A program made the position numbers and the translations under genes. This document shows, piece by piece, positions 1 through 11,464 of a stretch of 11,464 bases of DNA. The stretch comes from a virus (taxonomy: Duplodnaviria > Heunggongvirae > Uroviricota > Caudoviricetes), in IMG/VR virus record IMGVR_UViG_2737471839_000021, positions 1 through 11,464 of that record. One strand, 5' to 3'. The notes under the pieces are model-generated. The model was not told the DNA's origin, did no database searches, and saw nothing but the letters and a program-made list of their open reading frames with translations. How positions within the stretch are numbered: position 1 is the first letter of the stretch; every line of letters begins with the position of its first letter.

Positions 1-384
1 GCATACGAGATCGCAAAGGACTATTACGCTGGTGTGATGGCGAAAAAAGGCGTGGTATCAGGCGAAATTGACAATGATATCTGGAAACAGGCTGTTAACG
101 TAGCTACAGGTGGCGTGCATGACTATAACGGAATGGGGAATGTTCTTTTGCCGTGGGGAATGTCTGCAGAGCAATTCGATAAGCAGGTTAATCAGGCTTG
201 GAATGAACAAGTTGTCGGCACAGGGATAAAAACACCGCCTGGTCAGTATGGTTTGCAAAGTTACGGCGATAGTCAGTACCTGGTAAAACTTGGGACTGGA
301 TATCTGCTGAAGGATGATGGTTCTCCTGTTGTTCTTGATCTGACACAGAAGCGTCAGAGATTCTCCGGAGATATTCCGCAATGA
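1..384 (+). CDS. 3' fragment of a phage virion gene; the 5' end lies upstream of the window
   Basis: Frame 1 is open from base 1 to TGA at 382-384, so the listed 34..384 ORF is a 5'-truncated gene. Its stop overlaps the next start (ATGA at 381-384), typical of coupled phage structural operons. No recognisable motif. Confidence 0.5.
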   Translation, partial: AYEIAKDYYAGVMAKKGVVSGEIDNDIWKQAVNVATGGVHDYNGMGNVLLPWGMSAEQFDKQVNQAWNEQVVGTGIKTPPGQYGLQSYGDSQYLVKLGTGYLLKDDGSPVVLDLTQKRQRFSGDIPQ

Positions 385-2183
385 GTTACTTTGGCCTTAA
401 TCCAGTAAACCAGAATCAGCAGCTTGACGAAGCAGTATCAAATCCAGCTGGCTTTAACAGCGATGTTGGTTTTTTCGACAATGCTGTAGGAGCGGCATTG
501 TCTGGTTTGTACTCCGGGCTGGTGGCAAAGCCAGATCAGTTGCTATGGGCAGGGATGGATAAAATCGTATCCCCGATTGCTCAGTTTGTTAACGAAAACA
601 CCTCGCTCAATGACACTTCAGTTTCATACATTGCCGAGCAGAGAAAACTAGCAGAGCAGCAGGTTAAGCGGCTGACGCCTGATGCCGCGACAACCGGAAC
701 CGCAGGGCAGGTTCTTTATGGGTTGTTCGATATGGGCGGGCAGGCTGTTGTCGGTACAACGCTCGGTGGTCAGGTCGGAGGTGCGGCGGCGGTAACTTCG
801 CTACAGGGTTTTTCTGAGTTTGAACGGCTGACAGCACAGGGTGTTGATTTCAGGACAGCGCAGGAAGCGGGATTAGTGCAGGGCATTACTGCTGGTGCCG
901 GAACATTGATCCCTATGAGCCTCGGGTTACGTGCTGGTGGTGCGCTGGCGGAAGGTGTGGCGGCTCAGCTCGCGCGGACGGGTGAGAGTTCAGTGCGACG
1001 CGCCGCAGCAACAGCAGTACGTGCAACGCCAGATATTGCCTATGCCGCAGGTACAAATATTGCGTTCGGTATGGCACAGCGTGGGCTTACTGCAAAAACG
1101 CTTCGTGATGGTGGCTATAGCGAAATGGCTAACCAGTATGATGTGTTGGATCGACAGGCAATTGCTATTGATGCTGTTCTTGGGGTGGCGTTTGGTGGTG
1201 TTGGCAGATTTATTAACTCTCGCGGCGAGTCTACAAGCGCACCAAATTTTTCACCAGTTGATGTCGATGCTGCACTGGCGGCGAATGCCGCTCATCATGC
1301 TGAAATTGATATTGCTCCCGGCGTGCCGATCAACGTGCTTTCGCGCAATTCTCACATTCAGGCTCTGCGAAAAGCTATGTCTGATGTTAGCCAGGGGAGA
1401 CCTGTAGACGTTGCCAGCATTGTTGAGTCTGCATCTTTCAGTGAAATTCCAGGGCGCAAGAGTCTGCTGTCTCAGGCAGTTAATGAGGCTCTGTCATCTG
1501 TAGATGATGGAGTAACGGCGCGCGCTATAGAAAATCGGTTGCTTGAAGAACAGGCCGCGCAGCTTTTGCCGCGTGGCGATAGACAGGTTTACCAGTCTGA
1601 AATCGCTAATAGCCAACGAATTATTGAAAATCTCACTGAACAGCGCGCACAAATTCTTGCAGAAGAGCCAACAGGTAGCGGTAAAGCTTTGTCTCGTGCT
1701 CGATCAGATAAACAGGTCAGACTTCACGATATTGACCAACGAATCCGGCAGGCACAAGAACGCCTGGAATTTTCCCGTAACGCGTTGGCACCGCATGAGC
1801 CTGGCGGTCAGTTTTTTGAAGCTCGAGCAGAACTGGCACGGCGACAGCAGGCTGAAAGTGAACTTAATGCTCAGGCTGTTTCATTCTATAAAACAGCAGA
1901 GGTAAGTACGCCAGACGAAGTAGCTCCTTTTGAGCCCGGTAAGATATTGCAACAGGCAGAACAAAAGATGATGGCAGATCCGGCAGGAGATATTGATCTG
2001 CGCATAGCTGAAGATTCGCTGCTTGAATCACCGGACATGATAATAACCGTGCTGGATGATGATGGTAATCCACAATCGCGCAGCGCGCGTGAAGTGCTGG
2101 ATGAAGCGAACAGGGAAAGTGAGCAGGCAATACACGATTCCAGCCTGTTTGATGTCGCTGTGGCGTGTTTCTTGAGAGGTTAA
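381..2183 (+). CDS. Putative internal virion / ejection protein (600 aa)
   Basis: Long ORF in operon position just upstream of the tailspike. Gly/Ala/Thr-rich low-complexity N-terminal third, charged helical C-terminal half, no catalytic motif seen. Start overlaps upstream stop. Functional label rests on position and composition only. Confidence 0.55.
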   Translation: MSYFGLNPVNQNQQLDEAVSNPAGFNSDVGFFDNAVGAALSGLYSGLVAKPDQLLWAGMDKIVSPIAQFVNENTSLNDTSVSYIAEQRKLAEQQVKRLTPDAATTGTAGQVLYGLFDMGGQAVVGTTLGGQVGGAAAVTSLQGFSEFERLTAQGVDFRTAQEAGLVQGITAGAGTLIPMSLGLRAGGALAEGVAAQLARTGESSVRRAAATAVRATPDIAYAAGTNIAFGMAQRGLTAKTLRDGGYSEMANQYDVLDRQAIAIDAVLGVAFGGVGRFINSRGESTSAPNFSPVDVDAALAANAAHHAEIDIAPGVPINVLSRNSHIQALRKAMSDVSQGRPVDVASIVESASFSEIPGRKSLLSQAVNEALSSVDDGVTARAIENRLLEEQAAQLLPRGDRQVYQSEIANSQRIIENLTEQRAQILAEEPTGSGKALSRARSDKQVRLHDIDQRIRQAQERLEFSRNALAPHEPGGQFFEARAELARRQQAESELNAQAVSFYKTAEVSTPDEVAPFEPGKILQQAEQKMMADPAGDIDLRIAEDSLLESPDMIITVLDDDGNPQSRSAREVLDEANRESEQAIHDSSLFDVAVACFLRG

Positions 2184-2188
2184 ATTAA

Positions 2189-4663
2189 ATGAGACAGGAA
2201 TGTATACAAGCGGTCCAGCAGGCGGCGCAGCGCACGTTAACGGCGCGAGAAATACAGAACATTGAAGACCGCATTTATCGAAATATGCGCTCCATTGCTC
2301 GTGATGACCCGATGTCGTGGCGACAACTTTCCGAATCAGAACGGTTGTATCGTGCAGCACAATTGGCATCTGAAGAATTACAGCGAGAAGCGGCATTAAA
2401 GAAACGTCGTGTGGCCCTCACTATAGCCGCACGTCAGAGATTGGATAAATTTATCAATAGCTATCAAGGGGCTGATGGGAAACTTGGCGCTCTTAACCGT
2501 ACTATTGCTTTTAATGCAGACGGTAAATCGAATTTCCTCTCTGTTGAATCCAGAACAAAAGCCACCCGTGATTATGCATTGAGTCGATTGCAGGAGGCAT
2601 TCGAAGCAGTTGATCCTCGCTTTTTTGGTCTGTTTGAAGATGAAGCGGGCGTACGTGACCTGGTATATGAAATGCGGGGGCAAAATACTGGCAATGCTAA
2701 AGCAAGAAAAGGTGCTAAGGCGTGGAGAGAAGTTACAGAGCTGCTGCGCCGCCGGTTTAATGATGCTGGTGGGGACATTGGCTATCTCGAAAACTGGGGG
2801 ATCCCTCAACATCATTCTATGGAAAAGGTTGGGGCGGTATCAAAAGATAAATGGGTTAGCGATATTATAGGTAAGCTGGATCGCAAATATTATACCCGAG
2901 CCGATGGACAACTGATGAACGATGCCGAGTTGTCTGCATTTCTTGGAGAGGCTTATAACACGATCGCTACTGGTGGGCTGAATAAGCTTACTGATACCGG
3001 AATGCGAATTTCCGGCGCACGTGCTAACCGTGGTAATGCATCACGACAGATACATTTCAAAGATGCAGATTCCTATCTCCAATATCAACAACTTTATGGC
3101 GATCGCTCTCTATGGGAAATCATGGTCGGTCACCTGGAAGGTATCAGTAAAGATATTGCTCTGGTGGAAACATATGGTCCAAACCCCGATCATGTTTTCC
3201 GCTCCCTTCTTGATCAGGTTAAGGCAGAAACGGCAACAGCTAACCCGAGTAAAACCGGTAAAGTCGAGCGGCTGGCGAACAACACAGAGAATCTGTACAA
3301 CTTTATTTCCGGAAAGACACAGCCTGTAGCGAATCCGCACATCGCGCGATGGTCTGACAATATCCGCAACTGGCTGGTTGCCAGCAGACTCGGATCCGCG
3401 TTGCTGTCATCGTTCTCTGATCTTGGAACCATGTATCTGTCTGCGAAGGTTACCAACCTTCCAATGAACCAGTTATTCCGCAACCAACTTGAAGCTATGG
3501 ACCCAACGAACCGTACAGAACTTGCGCGGGCGCGCCGCGCTGGTCTGGCGATGGAATCTCTACTTGGCAGCGTTAACCGATGGGCGATGGATAATATGGG
3601 GCCGTCAGTGTCTCGTTGGGCGGCGACGGCGGTAATGCGTGCCAGTGGGCTTACAGCATGGTCAGATGCGCACAAGCGCGCCTATGGCGTAACCATGATG
3701 GGAAGCCTGGGAGAAGTAGTGTCACGGACACCAGACCTTCGTAGCCTCGATGACTCTGATTTTCGTATCCTGAAAAGCAAAGGGATTACTGACACAGACT
3801 GGAGCGTATGGAAGTTGGCGCAACAGGAGGACTGGGGGAACGGTAATAATACGATGCTGACACCAGAAAGCATTATGCGTATCCCTGATTCAGCAGTTAA
3901 ACATCTTGGTGAGCCTGAACGCGTGAAATTTGAGGCAATGCGTAAACTGCTCGGTGCCGTAACTGAAGAAGTTGATATGGCTGTTATTACACCGGGAGCA
4001 CGTGAGAAACTGATAACCGGTTCTGGTATTCAGCGTGGAACATGGAAAGGTGAATTAACGAGAAGTGTTTTCCTGTTTAAATCGTTCCCTATCTCGGTTG
4101 TTATGCGTCACTGGTCACGCGCTATGGGTATGCCGTCTGCTGGTGGGCGTGCGGCATATATTGCGACGTTTATTGCCAGTACGACCATTCTTGGCGCTTT
4201 GTCGCAGCAACTTAACGACCTTGCGTCGGGTCGTAATCCTCGAGAGATGACAGGAGAAGATGCCGCAAAATTCTGGCTTGGTGCTCTACTGAAAGGTGGT
4301 GGTCTTGGCCTTTACGGTGACTTTTTATTGTCAGATCACACTAGGTACGGAAGCGGCGCGCTGGCGTCGATGCTTGGCCCGGTAGCTGGTCTGGTTGATG
4401 ACGTAGTGAAGATTGCTCAGGGCATACCGTTAAATGCTGTGGAAGGGAAGAGTGAGCAGACTGGTGGTGATCTGGTGAAGCTGGGGAAAGGTTTGATGCC
4501 AGGTGCGAATCTCTGGTACTTGAAGGCGGCTCTCGATCACATGATCTTTAACCAGATGCAGGAGTATTTTTCACCAGGCTATTTGCGTAAAATGGAGCAA
4601 CGTTCGAAGAAAGAGTTTAACCAGACATACTGGTGGCGACCTCAGGATGTCACTCCGCAATAA
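2189..4663 (+). CDS. Putative large internal virion / ejection protein (824 aa)
   Basis: Starts 6 nt after the previous stop with GAGAGG about 9 nt upstream. Uninterrupted 2.4 kb ORF with a Gly-rich hydrophobic C-terminal segment (GGGLGLYGDFLL...GPVAGLVDDV). Size and position fit the large core/ejection protein of podoviruses; no sequence search was possible. Confidence 0.55.
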   Translation: MRQECIQAVQQAAQRTLTAREIQNIEDRIYRNMRSIARDDPMSWRQLSESERLYRAAQLASEELQREAALKKRRVALTIAARQRLDKFINSYQGADGKLGALNRTIAFNADGKSNFLSVESRTKATRDYALSRLQEAFEAVDPRFFGLFEDEAGVRDLVYEMRGQNTGNAKARKGAKAWREVTELLRRRFNDAGGDIGYLENWGIPQHHSMEKVGAVSKDKWVSDIIGKLDRKYYTRADGQLMNDAELSAFLGEAYNTIATGGLNKLTDTGMRISGARANRGNASRQIHFKDADSYLQYQQLYGDRSLWEIMVGHLEGISKDIALVETYGPNPDHVFRSLLDQVKAETATANPSKTGKVERLANNTENLYNFISGKTQPVANPHIARWSDNIRNWLVASRLGSALLSSFSDLGTMYLSAKVTNLPMNQLFRNQLEAMDPTNRTELARARRAGLAMESLLGSVNRWAMDNMGPSVSRWAATAVMRASGLTAWSDAHKRAYGVTMMGSLGEVVSRTPDLRSLDDSDFRILKSKGITDTDWSVWKLAQQEDWGNGNNTMLTPESIMRIPDSAVKHLGEPERVKFEAMRKLLGAVTEEVDMAVITPGAREKLITGSGIQRGTWKGELTRSVFLFKSFPISVVMRHWSRAMGMPSAGGRAAYIATFIASTTILGALSQQLNDLASGRNPREMTGEDAAKFWLGALLKGGGLGLYGDFLLSDHTRYGSGALASMLGPVAGLVDDVVKIAQGIPLNAVEGKSEQTGGDLVKLGKGLMPGANLWYLKAALDHMIFNQMQEYFSPGYLRKMEQRSKKEFNQTYWWRPQDVTPQ

Positions 4664-4672
4664 GGAAGTGTT

Positions 4673-4846
4673 GTGTTTTTAATTATTTTGAGTGTGATAA
4701 TTTCTGGTGGATTGTTATTTATTGACCGCTACAAATATTTTCTTAACCCTCAGACTCAAGCTATTTGCTGGTTCATCTTTGTTGTGCAGGGAGTAGTTCT
4801 TGTTGCAAGCCTTATTGAGGGGAGGCCTCTTATTTTTACTGGGTAA
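4673..4846 (+). CDS. Possible small two-TM membrane peptide (about 57 aa), GTG start, absent from the ATG-based ORF track
   Basis: Frame-2 ORF open from 4664 to TAA 4844-4846. AAGGAAG (4662-4668) lies just upstream of GTG 4673; alternative starts TTG 4688 and GTG 4694. Translation ...LIILSVIISGGLLFIDRYKYFLNPQTQAICWFIFVVQGVVLVASLIEGRPLIFTG has two hydrophobic helices. It fills an otherwise empty 195-bp gap and ends 12 nt before the next gene. Non-ATG start keeps confidence low. Confidence 0.3.
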   Translation: MFLIILSVIISGGLLFIDRYKYFLNPQTQAICWFIFVVQGVVLVASLIEGRPLIFTG

Positions 4847-4858
4847 ATAGGTGACTAC

Positions 4859-5155
4859 ATGCAAGCTATAGGATTCATTGTTTATATCGTCGTTGGTCTT
4901 TTTCAGTTGGCAGCAATTATGGCTGGGCTTGAATCATGGTGGGGATTGCACTGGATAATTGCAGCCCCCATTGCTTTCATCGTGAGCTATATTCCATTTG
5001 TTGGAGCGATTGTTGGTATGGTTGGCGCTGTGGATGTATGGCGGTGGGAGTGGTGGCAGGCTGGCCTTCTCTTCTTTGGTGGGATCATCTTTGCTATTGT
5101 CTGCGGTGGAATGTCATCATTTTTCGAATGGCTATCATTCAGAAAAGGGACGTGA
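4859..5155 (+). CDS. Small Trp-rich integral membrane protein (98 aa, about 3 TM helices), unknown function
   Basis: ATG at 4859 preceded by AGGTGA. Three long hydrophobic segments (IGFIVYIVVGLFQLAAIMAGL, WIIAAPIAFIVSYIPFVGAIVGMVGAV, AGLLFFGGIIFAIVCGG) with Trp clusters at the segment borders. Followed directly by an intrinsic terminator. Confidence 0.6.
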   Translation: MQAIGFIVYIVVGLFQLAAIMAGLESWWGLHWIIAAPIAFIVSYIPFVGAIVGMVGAVDVWRWEWWQAGLLFFGGIIFAIVCGGMSSFFEWLSFRKGT

Positions 5156-5190
5156 CATGTCACAGGCCGCTTTCGCGGCCTTTTCTTTAT
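5152..5190. terminator. Bidirectional intrinsic terminator between convergent genes
   Basis: Perfect 12-bp palindrome GTGACATGTCAC (5152-5163) overlaps the TGA of the membrane-protein gene. It is followed by a GC hairpin AGGCCGC-tttc-GCGGCCT (5164-5181) and a T-run (5182-5188). On the minus strand the same hairpins are followed by TTTTCT. Confidence 0.55.
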
Positions 5191-5444
5191 GTGGTTTGTT
5201 TTCGTAATTGTTCGGCACAATAGTCGAGATGTGTTTGCAGATCCTGCATAGACATCTGTGAGCTGGTGACGTAGTTAATCAGTGCAGTCAGTTCGGCAAG
5301 TGGGCCATCGACATTAAATCCATCCTTATCGAGATCCCGGAGTAATTTCATCAAGTGCGATCCCTCCACCAGTGATCTGACGCCTCCCGGCGTGTGAATC
5401 CTTTCGGTAAATCCGTCTTCCAGTGGATAGTGATACTGCTGCAT
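5187..5444 (-). CDS. Small soluble acidic protein (85 aa) of unknown function with a LexA box in its promoter; candidate SOS-inducible antirepressor or effector
   Basis: Minus-strand ORF. The track begins at a TTG (5462), but the first ATG (5444) is preceded by GGAGAAG with about 8-nt spacing, so 5444 is taken as start. Product MQQYHYPLEDGFTERIHTPGG...DYCAEQLRKQTT has no TM segment. LexA box lies 20 bp upstream. Confidence 0.6.
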   Translation of the reverse strand: MQQYHYPLEDGFTERIHTPGGVRSLVEGSHLMKLLRDLDKDGFNVDGPLAELTALINYVTSSQMSMQDLQTHLDYCAEQLRKQTT

Positions 5445-5463
5445 CTTATCTTCTCCATGCAAT

Positions 5464-5483
5464 AACTGTATATTTATACAGTA
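5464..5483. promoter_or_regulatory. LexA (SOS) operator, near-consensus
   Basis: AACTGTATATTTATACAGTA: CTGT-N8-ACAG with an AT-rich spacer, matching the E. coli LexA consensus TACTG(TA)5CAGTA; the core ACTGTATA..TATACAGT is a perfect palindrome. Sits 20-40 bp upstream of the minus-strand start at 5444, overlapping the expected promoter. Confidence 0.65.
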
Positions 5484-5639
5484 TCAAATAATTTGTTTGC
5501 TATCCAGCACGTTTTGCAAATCACCTGAAAGGTAATATCTGTTCGTATTTATGGGTTGTCTATCCATATGTGGTTTTTCAGGTAATAGAATAACCGGATA
5601 TGCGGCGCAACGGGTGCTGCGACTATCTGGAGATTTAAC

Positions 5640-8279
5640 ATGACGGTCTCAACCGAAGTTAACCACAACGAATACACAGGTAATGGTGTTACGACCACAT
5701 TCCCTTACACCTTTAGGGTTTTCAATAAATCTGATCTGGTGGTGCAGGTTATTGACCTTGAAGAAAATATCGCTGTGCTGGCTCCTGATACTGATTACAC
5801 CGTTACCGGGGCTGGAGGATATAACGGCGGTAATGTAATTCTGTCGAAGGCACTGGCTAACGGTTATCAGATTTCTATATCGCGAGAACTGAAGGTTACT
5901 CAGGAAACAGATCTGAGAAACCAGGGTAAGTTTTTTGCTGAGGTGCATGAAGACGCGTTCGATAAGCTGACTATGCTGATTCAGCAGGTGCGCAGTTTGT
6001 TTTCTCTGGCCCTTCGTAAGCCGTCGTTTGTGGCTAACTATTATGATGCTCTGAACAACTATATTAGAAATCTTCGCGATCCCATACGCCAACAGGATGC
6101 GGCTACAAAGAACTATGTGGATATGCTTGCTGAAAATAATATAAACAAAACACTGCGTGTTCCTGAGGGTTTTATACCATCACTTCCACCTGTATCTCAG
6201 CGAAAAAACAAAATTGTAGCTATGAACGATAATGGCGTTCCAATTATGGTATTGCCGGAAAGCGGTTCTGCTGCGGATGTGCTTATAGAGTTAGCTAAAT
6301 CCAATGGCACAAATAATATAAACGGAACAAAACACGTTCTTGGAGCTGAAGCAAGAAATCTTACTGACATGTTGTCTGACGAGATATCAGTTCGTGATTT
6401 TGGTGGTAATGATGATTACGATGGAACAAATTCTGATTCATGCACAAATAACCTGATTGCTTTTCAAAAATATTTTGAATACCTGAACTCTATTGGTGGT
6501 GGGAATTTAAATATACCAAAGACAAACACAGGCAAGTATTATATTAGTGGTGATGATCATACGCATGTGTCAAGTGATATTATGATATGTGCTGATAATG
6601 ATGTTTCTATTCATCTAAATTTTTCTGGTGGGTCATCAAACACTCCATTTGCTAACCTTGACCTGAAAGCATTACGTCAAATAAAAATAGAGTATGTTAA
6701 TTTTGGTTACAATTCATATGTTGGTGGGAGAGTCGATGTTCCGTTAGGTGACTTACTGCAAACCATGAATAATGGTAGCGGTGTCTACTCAATTCCAGAA
6801 TCTCTATCAGGAGATAATTTTTTCGTTATCGCACTGGGTAACAACACCACATCAATACCTCCGATATCATCAAGTGCAGATTCTATTTTATTTAATGGTT
6901 CAGGTGTTCCAACAGCGGCCACGATAAGCGCAATGCCTGGCGATGAAATTATGTCAATGGTTAGCGCACCGGTAACAGGAGGTATCCTTGCTGGTGTTGT
7001 GACGGCCGGTGGTTATGCGTTTGTATCTCAAGATACATCAACCGGAGATGTTGTTATTGCAGAAGGTACAACTGGTCAGCCAAATATACTTAACGGATTG
7101 AATTACGCTCTGATGGACCAATTGCGCGATAGATTTGACATGGCGCTGCTATCAGTAAAAGTTACTTCATCAAGAACTTTTACTGTAATGGCGAATGGTT
7201 TGGCAGTCGCAAGCCACACGACACGCTCGACAATTCTTGGTGTCTGTTTTGGTGCTAAAGATATTAACAATACAATCAGTGTTTCTCAGATGTCGCGTGT
7301 AAGGGGGAATAGCTTTTCTGGATCAAAACCATTAAAAATATTGGTATGCGGGGATTCTATTACTGATCAAAATAACCAGTATTCATGGGCCAAATATCTC
7401 CAGATGCAGTTGGGATCAGCTGGGATTAACATTGCTGAAATTAAAAATCTGGCAGTTGCTGGCCATACGGCAGCACAGCAATTAAGCATATTGCAGACAG
7501 TAGGCGTTGGTTATGATCTGTGCTTAATTCAGGTCGGAGTTAATGATGTTCAGATGCAAACTCCTGTTTTTAGTTTTATGTCAACAATAAGTCAAATGGT
7601 TACTTATTCTAAAAGCATTGGCGCATTTCCTATTGTTGGTGTACCAACGGCTTTTTATTCTCTTGCCGAAGCGAATGCTAACGGTCAAAGAGGAGGCCAG
7701 AATACATCAAACAATAATCTTATAGGTTTGTATCGTTCTTTGCTTATACGAGCTGTGGCATCGGCTGGTGGGATTGTTAATCTTGAACCTATGAAAGGAC
7801 ATGGGGCGATGACAGCGAAGTGGCTATCGATTGATCCGTATGCTGTTAGTGACAGCATTGTATTAGATAACATTCACCCAACACCATACGGTTCAATGCT
7901 ACTTGCGCAGGGATTCTCGCGCAGCATTATTGGTTGGCTTACTCGCCCTGATTTAACAGCAACAGAAAGTTTTGAATCAATCCCTACTCAGTGGTTAAGT
8001 CCCGGTTTTGGTACGACGTCGCTACCTAAAATCAAAGGAAGAACATTATCTGGTTTAATTAGTTTACATGAAACAAACATAAATGATGGCTCATTAGCAT
8101 TTACTCTGCCTCCTGCAATAAAACTTGATCAGCCAAGAATGCTAAGCGTTATTGGTGTTGGAGACAATGATCTCCCGGTTGGTCCATGCAGCATGTATAT
8201 AGGCACTGACGGAAAATGCTATTTTTTTAACCTTGCAGCAGGAACGAAGAAAATCTCACTTGATGGAGTTGAGATTTAG
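5640..8279 (+). CDS. Tailspike / tail fibre (879 aa): T7 gp17-like N-terminal anchor, beta-helix signature, SGNH/GDSL esterase domain
   Basis: ATG 5640 with GGAG upstream. Residues about 10-150 follow the T7 gp17 N-terminal tail-attachment pattern (YTGNG..FPYTF, TDYTV, EVHEDAFDKL). Around residue 250, SVRDFGGNDDYDGTNSD resembles the (V)xDFGAxGDGxTDD opening of beta-helix tailspikes. SGNH blocks: GDSIT (Ser 573, nt 7356-7358), GVND (res 633-636), DNIH (Asp 743/His 746, nt 7866-7877). Confidence 0.85.
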   Translation: MTVSTEVNHNEYTGNGVTTTFPYTFRVFNKSDLVVQVIDLEENIAVLAPDTDYTVTGAGGYNGGNVILSKALANGYQISISRELKVTQETDLRNQGKFFAEVHEDAFDKLTMLIQQVRSLFSLALRKPSFVANYYDALNNYIRNLRDPIRQQDAATKNYVDMLAENNINKTLRVPEGFIPSLPPVSQRKNKIVAMNDNGVPIMVLPESGSAADVLIELAKSNGTNNINGTKHVLGAEARNLTDMLSDEISVRDFGGNDDYDGTNSDSCTNNLIAFQKYFEYLNSIGGGNLNIPKTNTGKYYISGDDHTHVSSDIMICADNDVSIHLNFSGGSSNTPFANLDLKALRQIKIEYVNFGYNSYVGGRVDVPLGDLLQTMNNGSGVYSIPESLSGDNFFVIALGNNTTSIPPISSSADSILFNGSGVPTAATISAMPGDEIMSMVSAPVTGGILAGVVTAGGYAFVSQDTSTGDVVIAEGTTGQPNILNGLNYALMDQLRDRFDMALLSVKVTSSRTFTVMANGLAVASHTTRSTILGVCFGAKDINNTISVSQMSRVRGNSFSGSKPLKILVCGDSITDQNNQYSWAKYLQMQLGSAGINIAEIKNLAVAGHTAAQQLSILQTVGVGYDLCLIQVGVNDVQMQTPVFSFMSTISQMVTYSKSIGAFPIVGVPTAFYSLAEANANGQRGGQNTSNNNLIGLYRSLLIRAVASAGGIVNLEPMKGHGAMTAKWLSIDPYAVSDSIVLDNIHPTPYGSMLLAQGFSRSIIGWLTRPDLTATESFESIPTQWLSPGFGTTSLPKIKGRTLSGLISLHETNINDGSLAFTLPPAIKLDQPRMLSVIGVGDNDLPVGPCSMYIGTDGKCYFFNLAAGTKKISLDGVEI

Positions 8280-8378
8280 AGTGTCAAATCAATAGTAATT
8301 ATTATCCGTAAATGGTTTATTGTGTATGATGAGTTCACCAATAAGTGAGTTCATCATGCACGTTAAACGGTGGTTTTT

Positions 8379-8783
8379 ATGTCAGTTCAGCTAACCAGTG
8401 AGTCTTTAAATCAGTGGCTTAGTGCGGGTTCTCTTGCTGCGGTGATAGCAGGTGTTCCTCCAGAGGTGGCTTTGGGAGCTTTGGCTGGGGCGGTAATTTT
8501 TGTTACCTCAGCTATCGAGTATCCCATTCATCGTCGGGTTCTCCTGTCTATGCTCAGCTTCCTCTGCGGCCTTCTCTTTTACAAACCTACAGCATCCATC
8601 CTTATCGGTGTAGCCAGCCTGATCCCTACCATCACGCAGGACTCTTTCGAGAAAGGGATCGTCTTCTCTGCTGGCGCATTTGTGTCGTCAATTGTCGCCG
8701 TGCGTATTGGTATATGGCTCTATCACCGTTCCGATAATCCACGCGAGTTAATTCCGGGGAGAAAAGACGATGGTAACGCATGA
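8379..8783 (+). CDS. Holin-like membrane protein (134 aa from ATG 8379; GTG 8370 is an alternative start)
   Basis: First gene of the lysis cassette. Three to four hydrophobic helices and a charged C-terminal tail ([18 protein letters not shown]). Track start is GTG 8370 (M-V-F-M...), first ATG 8379 with GGTGG upstream. Overlaps the next gene by 14 nt. Confidence 0.55.
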   Translation: MSVQLTSESLNQWLSAGSLAAVIAGVPPEVALGALAGAVIFVTSAIEYPIHRRVLLSMLSFLCGLLFYKPTASILIGVASLIPTITQDSFEKGIVFSAGAFVSSIVAVRIGIWLYHRSDNPRELIPGRKDDGNA

Positions 8784-9078
8784 GCTTTTTTTACTTATCA
8801 CCAATGCGGTTATTTGCACTGGTATAGCCGTTCGAGTTGTCACATTTCGGCGAAACGGTTCTCAACACAGGCGATGGGGTGGGTGGCTGGCTTATTTCCT
8901 GATTGTTGCTGCGGCCAGCATTCCAGTTCGTGTCGCTTATGCAATCTGGTTACGCACACCAATGGTTGTGGATTTATCTGAGGTCATTATCAACGCTGTC
9001 ATGCTTGCTGCAGTCATTAAAACGCGCGGTAACGTAGTTCAGATTTTCAAAATAACGAGGTCTAAACATGGAGATTAA
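8770..9078 (+). CDS. Second holin-like / antiholin membrane protein (102 aa)
   Basis: Three hydrophobic segments with a basic C-terminus ([19 protein letters not shown]). Overlaps the upstream holin-like gene and the downstream endolysin start, so it is translationally coupled within the lysis cassette. Confidence 0.55.
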
Positions 9079-9697
9079 ACAATTCCAGCGAGCTGCTGGT
9101 ATCAGCGAGGCGCTGGCTGCACGCTGGTTCTCGCATATTAATTATGCGATGAAAGAATTTGGTATCAGCAAACCAGAAGATCTGGCAATGTTTATTGCTC
9201 AGGTCGGGCATGAGTCTGTTGGCTTCACCAGATTGCAGGAGAATTTCAACTACAGTGTCAGTGGACTGGCTAACTTCGTTCGGGCTGGGCGTCTCACTCA
9301 GGGGCAGGCTAATGCACTGGGTCGCCGTGCTGGTGAACCACCATTGCCACTCGAGCGCCAGCGAGCGATCGCCAATCTGGTGTACAGCAAACGCATGGGG
9401 AACAATGCCCCTGGTGATGGCTGGAATTACCGGGGACGCGGACTTATCCAGATTACCGGTTTGAATAACTATCGTGATTGCGGAAACGGTCTGAAGGTTG
9501 ACCTGCTGGAGAGCCCTGAACTGCTGGCGCAGGACGAATATGCGGCTCGTAGCGCGGCGTGGTTCTTCGCCAGCAAAGGATGCATGAAGTATACCGGAGA
9601 TATTGCACGTGTAACTCTGATTATCAATGGCGGTAGGAATGGCATCGACGACAGGCGCGCGCGGTACATCACTGCCAGTAAGGTGCTGGTGGTATGA
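9068..9697 (+). CDS. Endolysin, glycoside hydrolase family 19 (chitinase-like) type
   Basis: 209 aa; ATG 9068 preceded by GAGG. Carries [12 protein letters not shown]...QENFNYS with two closely spaced Glu (GH19 catalytic pair arrangement) and GRGLIQITG. No signal peptide or TM, consistent with holin-dependent release. Stop overlaps the Rz start (ATGA at 9694-9697). Confidence 0.85.
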
Positions 9698-10176
9698 TCT
9701 GGGCATTCGTAAAAGCATACTGGAAACAGTTGGTTATCATGGCGATGCTTGCTGTTCTGGTTATATCAGGAGTTGTAGCCTGGAATGCACACGGCAGTCG
9801 TCAGTACGACGCCGGGTATGCGCAGGCGAAAGAAGACTGCAAAGCCGAAGAAGAAAAAGTTCGTCAGCACCACGAACAGGAGAAAGCGACCAATGAACGT
9901 GAAGCGCAGCAGAGGATCGAACAGGCGCGCAGTGATGCTCTTGATGCTGCCGCTCGCGCTGGCAGGTTGCAGCAACAGCTCGTTGCCATCCGTGAGCAGC
10001 TCAGGCAGTATAACGCCATTGTCGGCGCTGGGTCGTCAGCCGCAGATACCGGAGTTTTGCTTGCCGACGTGTTCAGCAAATCTCTCGAGAGAAATAGACA
10101 ACTGGCAGAGTATGCTGACCGGGCAGCCGAAGCCGGAAGAGTCTGCGAAAAACAGTACGACACCATGACCAGATAG
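9694..10176 (+). CDS. Rz: Rz-type inner-membrane spanin (i-spanin), 160 aa
   Basis: N-terminal TM anchor ([21 protein letters not shown]) followed by a charged, coiled-coil-prone periplasmic domain. Immediately downstream of the endolysin and contains an embedded +1-frame lipoprotein ORF. Confidence 0.8.
9893..10168 (+). CDS. Rz1: Rz1-type outer-membrane lipoprotein spanin (o-spanin), embedded in Rz in the +1 frame
   Basis: Within track ORF 9785..10168, Met at 9893 begins [28 protein letters not shown]...: basic n-region, hydrophobic core, lipobox LAGC, then a Pro/Ser-rich short mature peptide. Start could alternatively be Met 9935. Entirely inside Rz. Confidence 0.7.
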   Translation: MNVKRSRGSNRRAVMLLMLPLALAGCSNSSLPSVSSSGSITPLSALGRQPQIPEFCLPTCSANLSREIDNWQSMLTGQPKPEESAKNSTTP

Positions 10177-10325
10177 CATGGCATTTTTCATGGTACTGAT
10201 TTTTGGTGACGGTATATAAAACGGTATGGTGAAAATCATGTTGCAGAAAGTTGTTGTCAGTCAATTGGTTATGTATTTCGTAAATAATTGAGTGGGAATG
10301 ATTTGACCCTGCACTATGAATGAAC

Positions 10326-10356
10326 AAAACCCTCTGTTACTACAGAGGGTTTTTTA
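10326..10356. terminator. Intrinsic terminator downstream of the lysis cassette, probably bidirectional
   Basis: AAAACCCTCTGT-tact-ACAGAGGGTTTTTT: 10-12 bp GC-containing stem, 4-nt loop, T6 tract on the + strand. On the minus strand the same stem is followed by TTTT, downstream of the convergent gene ending at 10394. Confidence 0.65.
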
Positions 10357-10393
10357 TCTTCAAGAATTATAGGATTGAAGTTACTAACATCGA

Positions 10394-10933
10394 TTAATTA
10401 AACCAGCTGTCCGATTTGTTCTCTTCTGCTTTGCCCACGCTTTTCATCAGATCGCGACCGCCTTCAGTCATATTTCTGTTGGCGTCAGCTTCAGATTGCA
10501 CCACATCGGTTTGCGCAGCTTTGTGCTTCAGTTCCTGATCGATAAATTCGTTTTCTCGCTTAACGCGGGCTTCTTCTTTCGCCAGCGCCAGTTTTTGTTT
10601 CTGAATCTCTAAGCTGCGTAGCTCATCTTCATAACTTTGATCGCGTTTTTTGTCCGCAGAGGCTTCGGCGTCCAGTTTATCCTGACGAGCTTTCTTATTT
10701 GCCGCTGCCGTTGCCGCTCTTTTGTTAGCGGCGGCCTGGGCATTTGCGCGACGTTGCTTCTCTTGCTGGATTTCCCTGTTGCGCTCCGCGACCCATTCGT
10801 CATGCTGCCTTTGCTCTTCATTTTTACCTTGCTGTTCCGCTTCTGCGACAGCAGAGAGTTGATCCTGCAATGATGAGGCGATAGCCGGATAGCTTAAGGA
10901 GGCTAAGATGGCGCAAAGAAAAACTTTCTTCAT
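10394..10933 (-). CDS. Secreted, highly charged (K/E/R/A/Q-rich) probable coiled-coil periplasmic protein (179 aa)
   Basis: N-terminal signal peptide MKKVFLCAILASLSYPAIA with an AxA cleavage site, then low-complexity charged helical sequence. RBS AGGAGGAG upstream on the minus strand. No enzymatic motif. Confidence 0.6.
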   Translation of the reverse strand: MKKVFLCAILASLSYPAIASSLQDQLSAVAEAEQQGKNEEQRQHDEWVAERNREIQQEKQRRANAQAAANKRAATAAANKKARQDKLDAEASADKKRDQSYEDELRSLEIQKQKLALAKEEARVKRENEFIDQELKHKAAQTDVVQSEADANRNMTEGGRDLMKSVGKAEENKSDSWFN

Positions 10934-10948
10934 GACTCCTCCTGATTA

Positions 10949-11464
10949 TTAGCTCTTTTCAGGACATTTGGTATTTGGCTGAATACGCGTTTCGTTATAC
11001 GTCGTGGTAATAACAACGGCTAAACCTGTCGTAAACTGGCACTCTTTACCCACCTGGGTAGAGGTATACACTTTGGTGCCTTCCTTATAGGTTAAAGAAA
11101 CACCTTCCACTAAGGTTTTATCATTCACCATAGAACCCGCTGCCGCGCCTACAGCTCCGCCGCCAACTGCACCTGCCGTCGTTCCGGAATTGCTGCCAGA
11201 CCCGACGTTGTGGCCGATAACACCGCCAGCGACTGCGCCAATAAGCGCGCCGAAGGCTTGTGCGTTCCGTTTATTTTGGGAGTTGTCTACGGCAACTTTT
11301 GCGGGAAGAATGGAAATAATATTAACGGTTTTAGTTTCTTGTTTGGTATTCAGTTGATCGGTTTGATAAACATCGGCAGCATGATCGTCAGCATTTGACT
11401 GGCATCCTGCCAGAGTGAATGACGCTAACATTGCCACAGGCAGAAGACATTTTTTAAATTTCAT
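10949..11464 (-). CDS. Outer-membrane lipoprotein with glycine-zipper domain (SlyB / 17-kDa-antigen-like), 171 aa
   Basis: Start ATG is the last 3 nt of the window (11462-11464). Lipoprotein signal MKFKKCLLPVAMLASFTLAGCQ with lipobox LAGC. Central GALIGAVAGGVIGHNVGSGSNSGTTAGAVGGGAVGAAAG is a glycine-zipper motif as in SlyB-family lipoproteins. Runs 15 nt upstream of the secreted-protein gene on the same strand, a likely two-gene operon. Confidence 0.7.
   Translation of the reverse strand: MKFKKCLLPVAMLASFTLAGCQSNADDHAADVYQTDQLNTKQETKTVNIISILPAKVAVDNSQNKRNAQAFGALIGAVAGGVIGHNVGSGSNSGTTAGAVGGGAVGAAAGSMVNDKTLVEGVSLTYKEGTKVYTSTQVGKECQFTTGLAVVITTTYNETRIQPNTKCPEKS

Follow-up and report, generated by a model that had tools for sequence, protein, structure and literature searches.

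A prophage tailspike with an exchangeable, predicted SGNH esterase module associated with Escherichia coli O109 genomes

Overview of the locus

The window examined here, namely the whole 11,464-nucleotide stretch at positions 1 to 11,464 of the IMG/VR virus record IMGVR_UViG_2737471839_000021, constitutes the right arm of a prophage of the epsilon15/phiV10 type (Uetakevirus), and the subject of this study is its tailspike gene. The gene is the longest open reading frame (ORF) at its location, begins with ATG and specifies 879 amino acids plus a stop codon, encoding the single tailspike of a temperate podovirus of this group integrated beside yfgI in Escherichia coli. The protein joins a conserved virion anchor to an exchangeable module containing a predicted SGNH/GDSL esterase domain, and among complete E. 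coli genomes this module shows an exclusive association with the O109 serogroup, which is new here. The exact protein is already present in NCBI as "SGNH/GDSL hydrolase family protein", and 7 of the 5,426 complete E. coli genomes searched hold a near-identical prophage spike, annotated merely under the same name.

The window carries, in order, genes for two large virion proteins (ORFs at 381-2183 and 2189-4663), a set of small moron genes, the tailspike gene, and the genes of two holins, the GH19 endolysin and an Rz-like spanin. Assignment of the spike to the Uetakevirus tailspikes is supported by a homologous N-terminal virion-binding domain and by a conserved gene position with the same gene order on both sides. 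The DNA flanking the spike on either side is 94-96% identical to phages HEMP4, phiv142-3 and phiV10, and the 3' three quarters of the spike gene is the sole part that the DNA of these phages does not match. Homology to phiV10 stops at approximately 10303, beyond which lie yfgI (10394-10933, minus strand) and yfgH (10949-11464, minus strand); the source of the window is therefore an E. coli chromosome, as opposed to a free phage genome. The coordinates of the principal features are collected in Table 1.

Table 1. Features of the tailspike gene and its surroundings in the window
Feature	Position	Strand	Residues	Basis or remark
Tailspike gene	5640..8279	+		ORF list, translation; PHROG tail protein phrog_1640, E 2e-145; position as phiV10 gp25 and epsilon15 gp20
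Virion anchor, epsilon15/phiV10 (Uetakevirus) spike family	5640..6290	+	1-217	Identity to Uetakevirus spikes
Junction	6291..6386	+	218-249	Anchor homology ends, shared receptor-binding module begins; GC (guanine plus cytosine) fraction 0.46 to 0.35
Right-handed beta-helix stub (cap helix and ~2-3 rungs), DFGG..DGT at start	6387..6725	+	250-362	
ConA/galectin/CBM (carbohydrate-binding module)-like beta-sandwich	6789..7307	+	384-556	
SGNH/GDSL esterase domain	7332..7949	+	565-770	
Ser573 codon, predicted nucleophile, block I GDSIT	7356..7358	+	573	Invariant
Gly608 codon, block II oxyanion-hole glycine	7461..7463	+	608	Invariant
Asn635 codon, block III GVND oxyanion-hole asparagine	7542..7544	+	635	Invariant
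Asp743-Asn-Ile-His746 codons, block V DxxH, triad acid and base	7866..7877	+	743-746	D743 and H746 invariant
C-terminal all-beta domain	7962..8276	+	775-879	Predicted local distance difference test score (pLDDT) 86-94, beta strands; conserved with module, W785 invariant
Shine-Dalgarno-like GGAGA	5629..5633	+		7 nt 5' of ATG; direct sequence reading
Lysis cassette: two holins, GH19 endolysin, Rz-like spanin	8370..10176	+		Pfam PF16931, PF05449, PF00182, PF10721; phiV10 synteny minus oac

Virion anchor and exchangeable module

The anchor is 74-82% identical to the spikes of phiV10, epsilon15, SPN1S and PAT1 over residues 1-224/234 and matches the solved N-terminus of the Dpo31/Carin-1 tail fibre in the PDB (E 2e-27). 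A preliminary description of the sequence had regarded this region as a T7 gp17-like anchor. The T7 gp17 family PF03906 reaches only 13.9 bits against a cut-off of 25.2, with the match confined to residues 135-166, and the anchor belongs instead to the epsilon15/phiV10 spike family; because of this subthreshold score, it shares the role of gp17 but not demonstrably its family. By analogy with epsilon15, the spike would be trimeric. Of the best 120 clusters sharing this Uetakevirus anchor, about one fifth carry a GDSL domain. In three of these spikes (P0010, P0031 and P0035) the GDSL domain directly follows the anchor at residues ~277-600, and these proteins display no similarity to the O109-linked module, so that several unrelated esterase modules have been recruited to the Uetakevirus anchor.

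Residues 218-879 are conserved as one block, with 43-90% identity across approximately 32 protein clusters, and BLASTP alignments of module homologues start at query residues 212-245. The N-terminal partners of this block include epsilon15-like, PF18668 (TSP1/gp66-type), PF03906 (true T7-type), PF26208 and Mtd_N domains, so that the block occurs as a unit on at least four anchor types besides the epsilon15-like one; the relatives P0138 and P0139, for instance, place a true PF03906 anchor on the same module. The GC fraction drops from 0.46 to values of 0.35-0.41 in the interval 6200-8300 and is back at 0.49 in the lysis genes; such a dip fits horizontal acquisition of the module.

A full-length AlphaFold monomer model and a sub-model of residues 235-565 (pLDDT 81.6) together resolve the module into four parts; an earlier alignment with anchor-only homologues (A1) was excluded as too gappy for modelling. 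The top Foldseek matches of the whole model are two-domain carbohydrate esterases in which a sandwich is followed by an SGNH domain (YxiM, carbohydrate esterase family 2 (CE2) enzymes and Ape1), and the predicted fold contains the SGNH alpha/beta/alpha core whose absence would have told against the preliminary description. The beta-helix signature proposed there holds in part: the DFGG..DGT opening (residues 253-256 and 261-263) is real, but it introduces a stub of only ~110 residues, none of the Pfam beta-helix families PF12708, PF13229 and PF05048 is detected on the spike at E<=1, and there is no long many-rung helix forming a catalytic groove as in beta-helix depolymerases. The sandwich is probably a sugar-binding domain, its top matches being non-catalytic lectins and CBMs, with GH16 enzymes and an alginate lyase lower down, and the C-terminal domain is a candidate for trimerisation or for a second binding site. 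Searched against 1.84 billion cluster representatives, the stub and sandwich returned 26 clusters, almost all of which matched the two together, and 21-22 of the 26 carry a recognisable GDSL domain, with short fragments among the remainder; this co-occurrence indicates that stub, sandwich and SGNH domain form an obligate unit. A PDB sequence search with the C-terminal 645 amino acids and an NCBIfam search of the spike gave no match.

The predicted SGNH esterase domain

The SGNH blocks named in the preliminary description lie exactly where it had placed them (GDSIT at 571-575, GVND at 633-636 and DNIH at 743-746) and are borne out by sequence, Pfam profiles and invariance in homologues. PF13472 (Lipase_GDSL_2) scores 44.1 bits over residues 570-751 (cut-off 32.9, E 4e-11) and PF00657 (Lipase_GDSL) 30.6 bits (cut-off 23.6). 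All nine of G571, D572, S573, G608, G633, N635, D636, D743 and H746 show no variation among 33 homologues (31-90% identity), and in a further set of 26 cluster representatives, which are more distant, the motif positions hardly vary. Given these scores and this invariance, the motifs are no chance match. Blocks I, II, III and V occur in order within a three-layer alpha/beta/alpha flavodoxin-like fold, as is typical of the SGNH superfamily, and the domain is the best-conserved part of the module (0.67 vs ~0.51).

Association with O109 genomes

The O-antigen locus of one carrier, AMSHJX01, is annotated with wzx and wzy of the O109 family, and megablast with its 11.9-kb O109 cluster identified 18 positives among the 5,426 complete E. 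coli genomes (0.33%). These 18 include all seven genomes with a near-identical spike as well as YZ22MPE6 and LF4-1, in both of which a 73%-identical module follows a PF18668 anchor and lies at another locus. Carriage of the module is thus restricted to O109 in nine of nine complete genomes (hypergeometric p 4e-24), or p 2e-13 when the carriers are collapsed to five lineages. The carriers were obtained from panda, cattle, chicken, pork and deer in three countries, and their prophages vary in moron content and spike allele (92-99%). O-antigen-specific Uetakevirus receptor-binding proteins show the same pattern of serogroup association (PMC10408124). As all nine carriers fall among the 18 O109 genomes, the O109 O-antigen is the predicted and most likely receptor of the spike.

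A 177-amino-acid hexapeptide acetyltransferase ends the O109 cluster beside gnd (NZ_CP030939.1, locus stretch L006 11577-12110). Its nearest models are those of the EpsC/CysE/WcaB O-acetyltransferases (a subthreshold 124 bits), with the NeuD/PglB/VioB N-acetyltransferases far more distant, which makes the enzyme a candidate source of the O-acetyl substrate and hints at an O-acetylated O109 O-unit. The cluster also has a separate GNAT gene beside two aminotransferase genes, taken from that position as the acetyltransferase for the N-acetyl groups of L-RhaNAc3NAc; presumably it is WeiO of the published scheme.

The 73%-identical copy in YZ22MPE6 and LF4-1 is a stranded spike gene with a PF18668 anchor and the esterase module (73% nucleotide identity; NZ_CP139339.1 of YZ22MPE6, locus stretch L008 7886-13291). 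It sits at the yiiG-frvB locus of these two O109 genomes and is flanked by IS1 and by a convergent pair encoding a 359-amino-acid hypothetical protein and an MBOAT O-acyltransferase. This pair was considered as a general O109 feature and rejected, as it occurs in only 2 of the 5,426 genomes. The stranded copy may have been left behind by a phage in which a deacylating spike was paired with an acylating conversion module.

Neighbouring genes and prophage setting

The spike stop codon is separated from the first holin gene by only 90 bp (8280-8369), and no O-antigen-modifying gene lies in this interval, whereas the gene following the spike is the O-acetyltransferase oac in phiV10, O-antigen conversion genes occupy this place in epsilon15, and a glucosyltransferase gene does so in BUCT554. 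The moron region (4664-5639) is minimal, with a 98-amino-acid ORF at 4859-5155 (plus strand) and an epsilon15 gp19-like ORF at 5187-5462 (minus strand). The same minimal layout is found in the prophage of strain 22-245; that of AMSHJX01 has DUF4760 and AntA/B genes, and that of HCM-28C-2 has Arc, antirepressor, YafO toxin and BRO-N genes. All three of these carriers, the ones inspected in this respect, share the yfgI-adjacent integration site. Relative to the K-12 gene order, AMSHJX01 (NZ_CP030939.1, ~1.33-3.3 Mb) has a large chromosomal inversion, its yfgI region running in descending order and the 1.86-3.3 Mb stretch in ascending order.

Two antisense ORFs within the spike gene, at 5649-6092 (147 amino acids) and 7685-7873 (62 amino acids), both on the minus strand, are assumed to be spurious. 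A transfer RNA scan of the window, including the prophage/chromosome junction (10177-11464), found none, and promoter and terminator scans yielded sites no more numerous than in shuffled controls.

Proposed mechanism and alternative explanations

The best explanation as a whole, which we regard as moderately probable, is that of a prophage spike whose horizontally exchanged module recognises the O109 O-antigen and O-deacetylates it without cleaving the chain. It builds on the gene, domain order, fold, conservation, modular exchange and exclusive O109-genome association described above. According to this scheme, residues 1-217 would fix the spike, putatively a trimer, to the tail, while the sandwich, perhaps together with the C-terminal domain, would hold the O109 polysaccharide. 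Ser573 as nucleophile, assisted by His746/Asp743 and by the oxyanion hole of Gly608 and Asn635, would then remove O-acetyl, the presumed leaving group, from the O109 O-units and leave the chain uncut. Repeated binding and deacetylation would render binding reversible and processive and bring the tail to the outer membrane, giving the predicted esterase activity a role in adsorption. Such a course has precedents: deacetylation by G7C gp63.1 is essential for infection and apparently processive, and leaves the chain intact (PMC10743462), and O-deacetylation by gp66 of Pectobacterium phage Possum has been proven by nuclear magnetic resonance (PMC9569702). O-deacetylating spikes are thus known from G7C, PP99 and Possum, and SGNH receptor-binding proteins of Klebsiella prophages act as esterases on p-nitrophenyl acetate (PMC10743462, PMC9569702, PMC13123978).

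Several points weigh against this explanation. No characterised homologue is detectable by sequence, and esterase activity is a prediction; the best matches among phage records are 30%-identical, unannotated Aeromonas phage proteins, and neither BLASTP nor hhalign gave a significant or SGNH-covering alignment with G7C gp63.1 (PDB 4QNL). The full-length model is a monomer with a pLDDT of 71.5 in which residues 86-247 are poor. The nine O109 carriers are partly non-independent, comprising three OkiPb strains and the pairs 22-245/22-250 and YZ22MPE6/LF4-1. O-acetylation of the O109 O-unit itself is putative. The hexapeptide transferase reaches none of the NCBIfam cut-offs and may instead be the N-acetyltransferase that serves L-RhaNAc3NAc.

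The non-independence of carriers also lends some weight to the view that the esterase acts on another surface polymer (capsule, colanic acid, enterobacterial common antigen or another acylated glycan) and that the O109 link reflects shared host ancestry. Several carriers are near-duplicates, colanic acid and many K antigens are O-acetylated, and wcaB and wcaF adjoin the O cluster. In addition, some Uetakevirus receptor-binding protein subtypes span many serogroups (PMC10408124). Yet such a target is unlikely, given that nine of nine carriers belong to a serogroup making up 0.33% of genomes, that a divergent (92%) allele and the 73%-identical copy, with an anchor and a locus of its own, are among them, and that the hosts represent five animal sources and three countries. 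Colanic acid genes, moreover, are near-universal in E. coli, so a colanic acid target would not yield the O109 pattern. Lysogens of Uetakeviruses and related prophages are shielded through O-acetylation of their O-antigen, phiV10 Oac being an example, and the spike might be a counter-measure to acetylation-based receptor masking, stripping or depending on acyl marks to reach O109 cells; the YZ22MPE6/LF4-1 copy would then be the remnant of a lineage that both wrote and erased acyl marks on the same polysaccharide. We consider this reading quite unlikely; in a weaker variant of it, the conserved stub and ConA-like sandwich would be a second, unrecognised catalytic unit.

The remaining alternatives concern what the module does rather than where it acts. 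Some phage receptor-binding proteins retain enzyme folds purely for binding, and since the activity of the SGNH domain is predicted from sequence, the domain might have been kept as a lectin-like scaffold with hydrolysis irrelevant or lost. This is decidedly improbable, however, because the five catalytic and oxyanion residues are invariant in homologues down to ~25-30% identity and conservation within the module peaks in the SGNH domain, a pattern not expected of a dead enzyme. The preliminary description had also allowed for a dual-activity spike, glycanase plus deacetylase, in which the stub or the ConA-like sandwich additionally cleaves the polysaccharide backbone. The ConA-like fold is indeed common to GH16 glycanases and PL7 lyases, and both GH16 enzymes and an alginate lyase appear low among the sandwich matches. 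But the stub, with its ~110 residues, ~2-3 rungs and lack of any Pfam beta-helix match at E<=1, is short, the best matches of the sandwich are non-catalytic lectins and CBMs, and the translated sequence and its conserved residues show neither the GH16 ExDxxE motif nor a PL7 signature. Stub and sandwich are, furthermore, less conserved than the SGNH domain, leaving the proposal unsupported and very improbable. Lastly, the fold would permit an acyltransferase in place of a hydrolase, as matches to OatA and PatB illustrate, but esterases match better, an extracellular virion protein has no obvious acetyl donor, and the characterised SGNH domains of spikes are reported as hydrolases (PMC10743462, PMC9569702), so that this idea is extremely unlikely. 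The interpretation given in the preliminary description is partly supported, with O-deacetylation of the O109 O-antigen by an SGNH spike as the preferred reading.

Comparison with known systems and significance

The anchor places the spike closest to epsilon15 gp20 and phiV10 gp25, which are 74-79% identical to it over residues 1-224/234 and occupy the same gene position between a gp19-like gene and the lysis genes. Their receptor-binding parts, by contrast, are unrelated to the present module: hhalign against epsilon15 gp20 aligns the anchor alone, and PF13229 beta-helices match epsilon15 gp20 and the BUCT554 spike, unlike this one. An esterase domain on the epsilon15 spike itself is announced in the title of a 2026 preprint. 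Family-level homology to G7C gp63.1 was considered and rejected on the alignments above, and the gp63.1-specific domains PF21562, PF21988 and PF22245 are all absent from the spike, which is thus not of the gp63.1 type. Domain order differs as well, as the SGNH domain of gp63.1 (270-485) precedes galactose-binding-like and C-terminal domains; gp63.1 hangs on gp66 via PF18668 in a lytic N4-like phage, whereas here an epsilon15-type anchor serves a temperate phage.

The combination of an N-terminal sandwich with a C-terminal SGNH domain recurs in YxiM of Bacillus subtilis (2O14), CE2 esterases (2WAA/7TOH/3U37) and Ape1 of Campylobacter jejuni (CBM35). These, however, are enzymes of bacteria, either soluble or secreted, whose substrates are plant xylan or peptidoglycan; they share 10-17% identity with the spike and have neither a virion anchor nor a C-terminal beta domain. 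Among phages, the module matches 6 of 50,697 records (from Aeromonas and Enterobacter phages) at no more than 31% identity, none of them functionally annotated. Three of the six come from Aeromonas podophages, of which two are assigned to the T7-like Studiervirinae; in the one inspected, phiA014S, the module stands in the gp17 position.

The concept of deacetylating rather than depolymerising the host polysaccharide is shared with the Klebsiella prophage receptor-binding proteins 164_08-KL2 and 174_38-KL55 and with the spikes of Pectobacterium phages PP99 and Possum, which, like this spike, track the polysaccharide type of the host and are horizontally exchanged (PMC13123978, PMC9569702). The phage-record search detected no sequence relation to any of these Klebsiella, PP99 or Possum spikes, and the published Klebsiella SGNH proteins are described without a parallel beta-helix, whereas the present spike has a stub.

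The finding changes no general principle, and the class of esterase spikes is already known. What it adds to that class is a family of SGNH-esterase spikes, uncharacterised and distinctive in domain order, whose architecture of stub, lectin-like sandwich, SGNH and C-terminal domain joins the few esterase spikes studied. It also attaches a concrete receptor prediction, the O109 O-antigen, to a spike whose sole database name is "SGNH/GDSL hydrolase family protein". The module could serve O109 typing or the engineering of phage host range. The finding also lends support to the increasingly held idea that deacetylation of host polysaccharides, in place of depolymerisation, is frequent among temperate phages.

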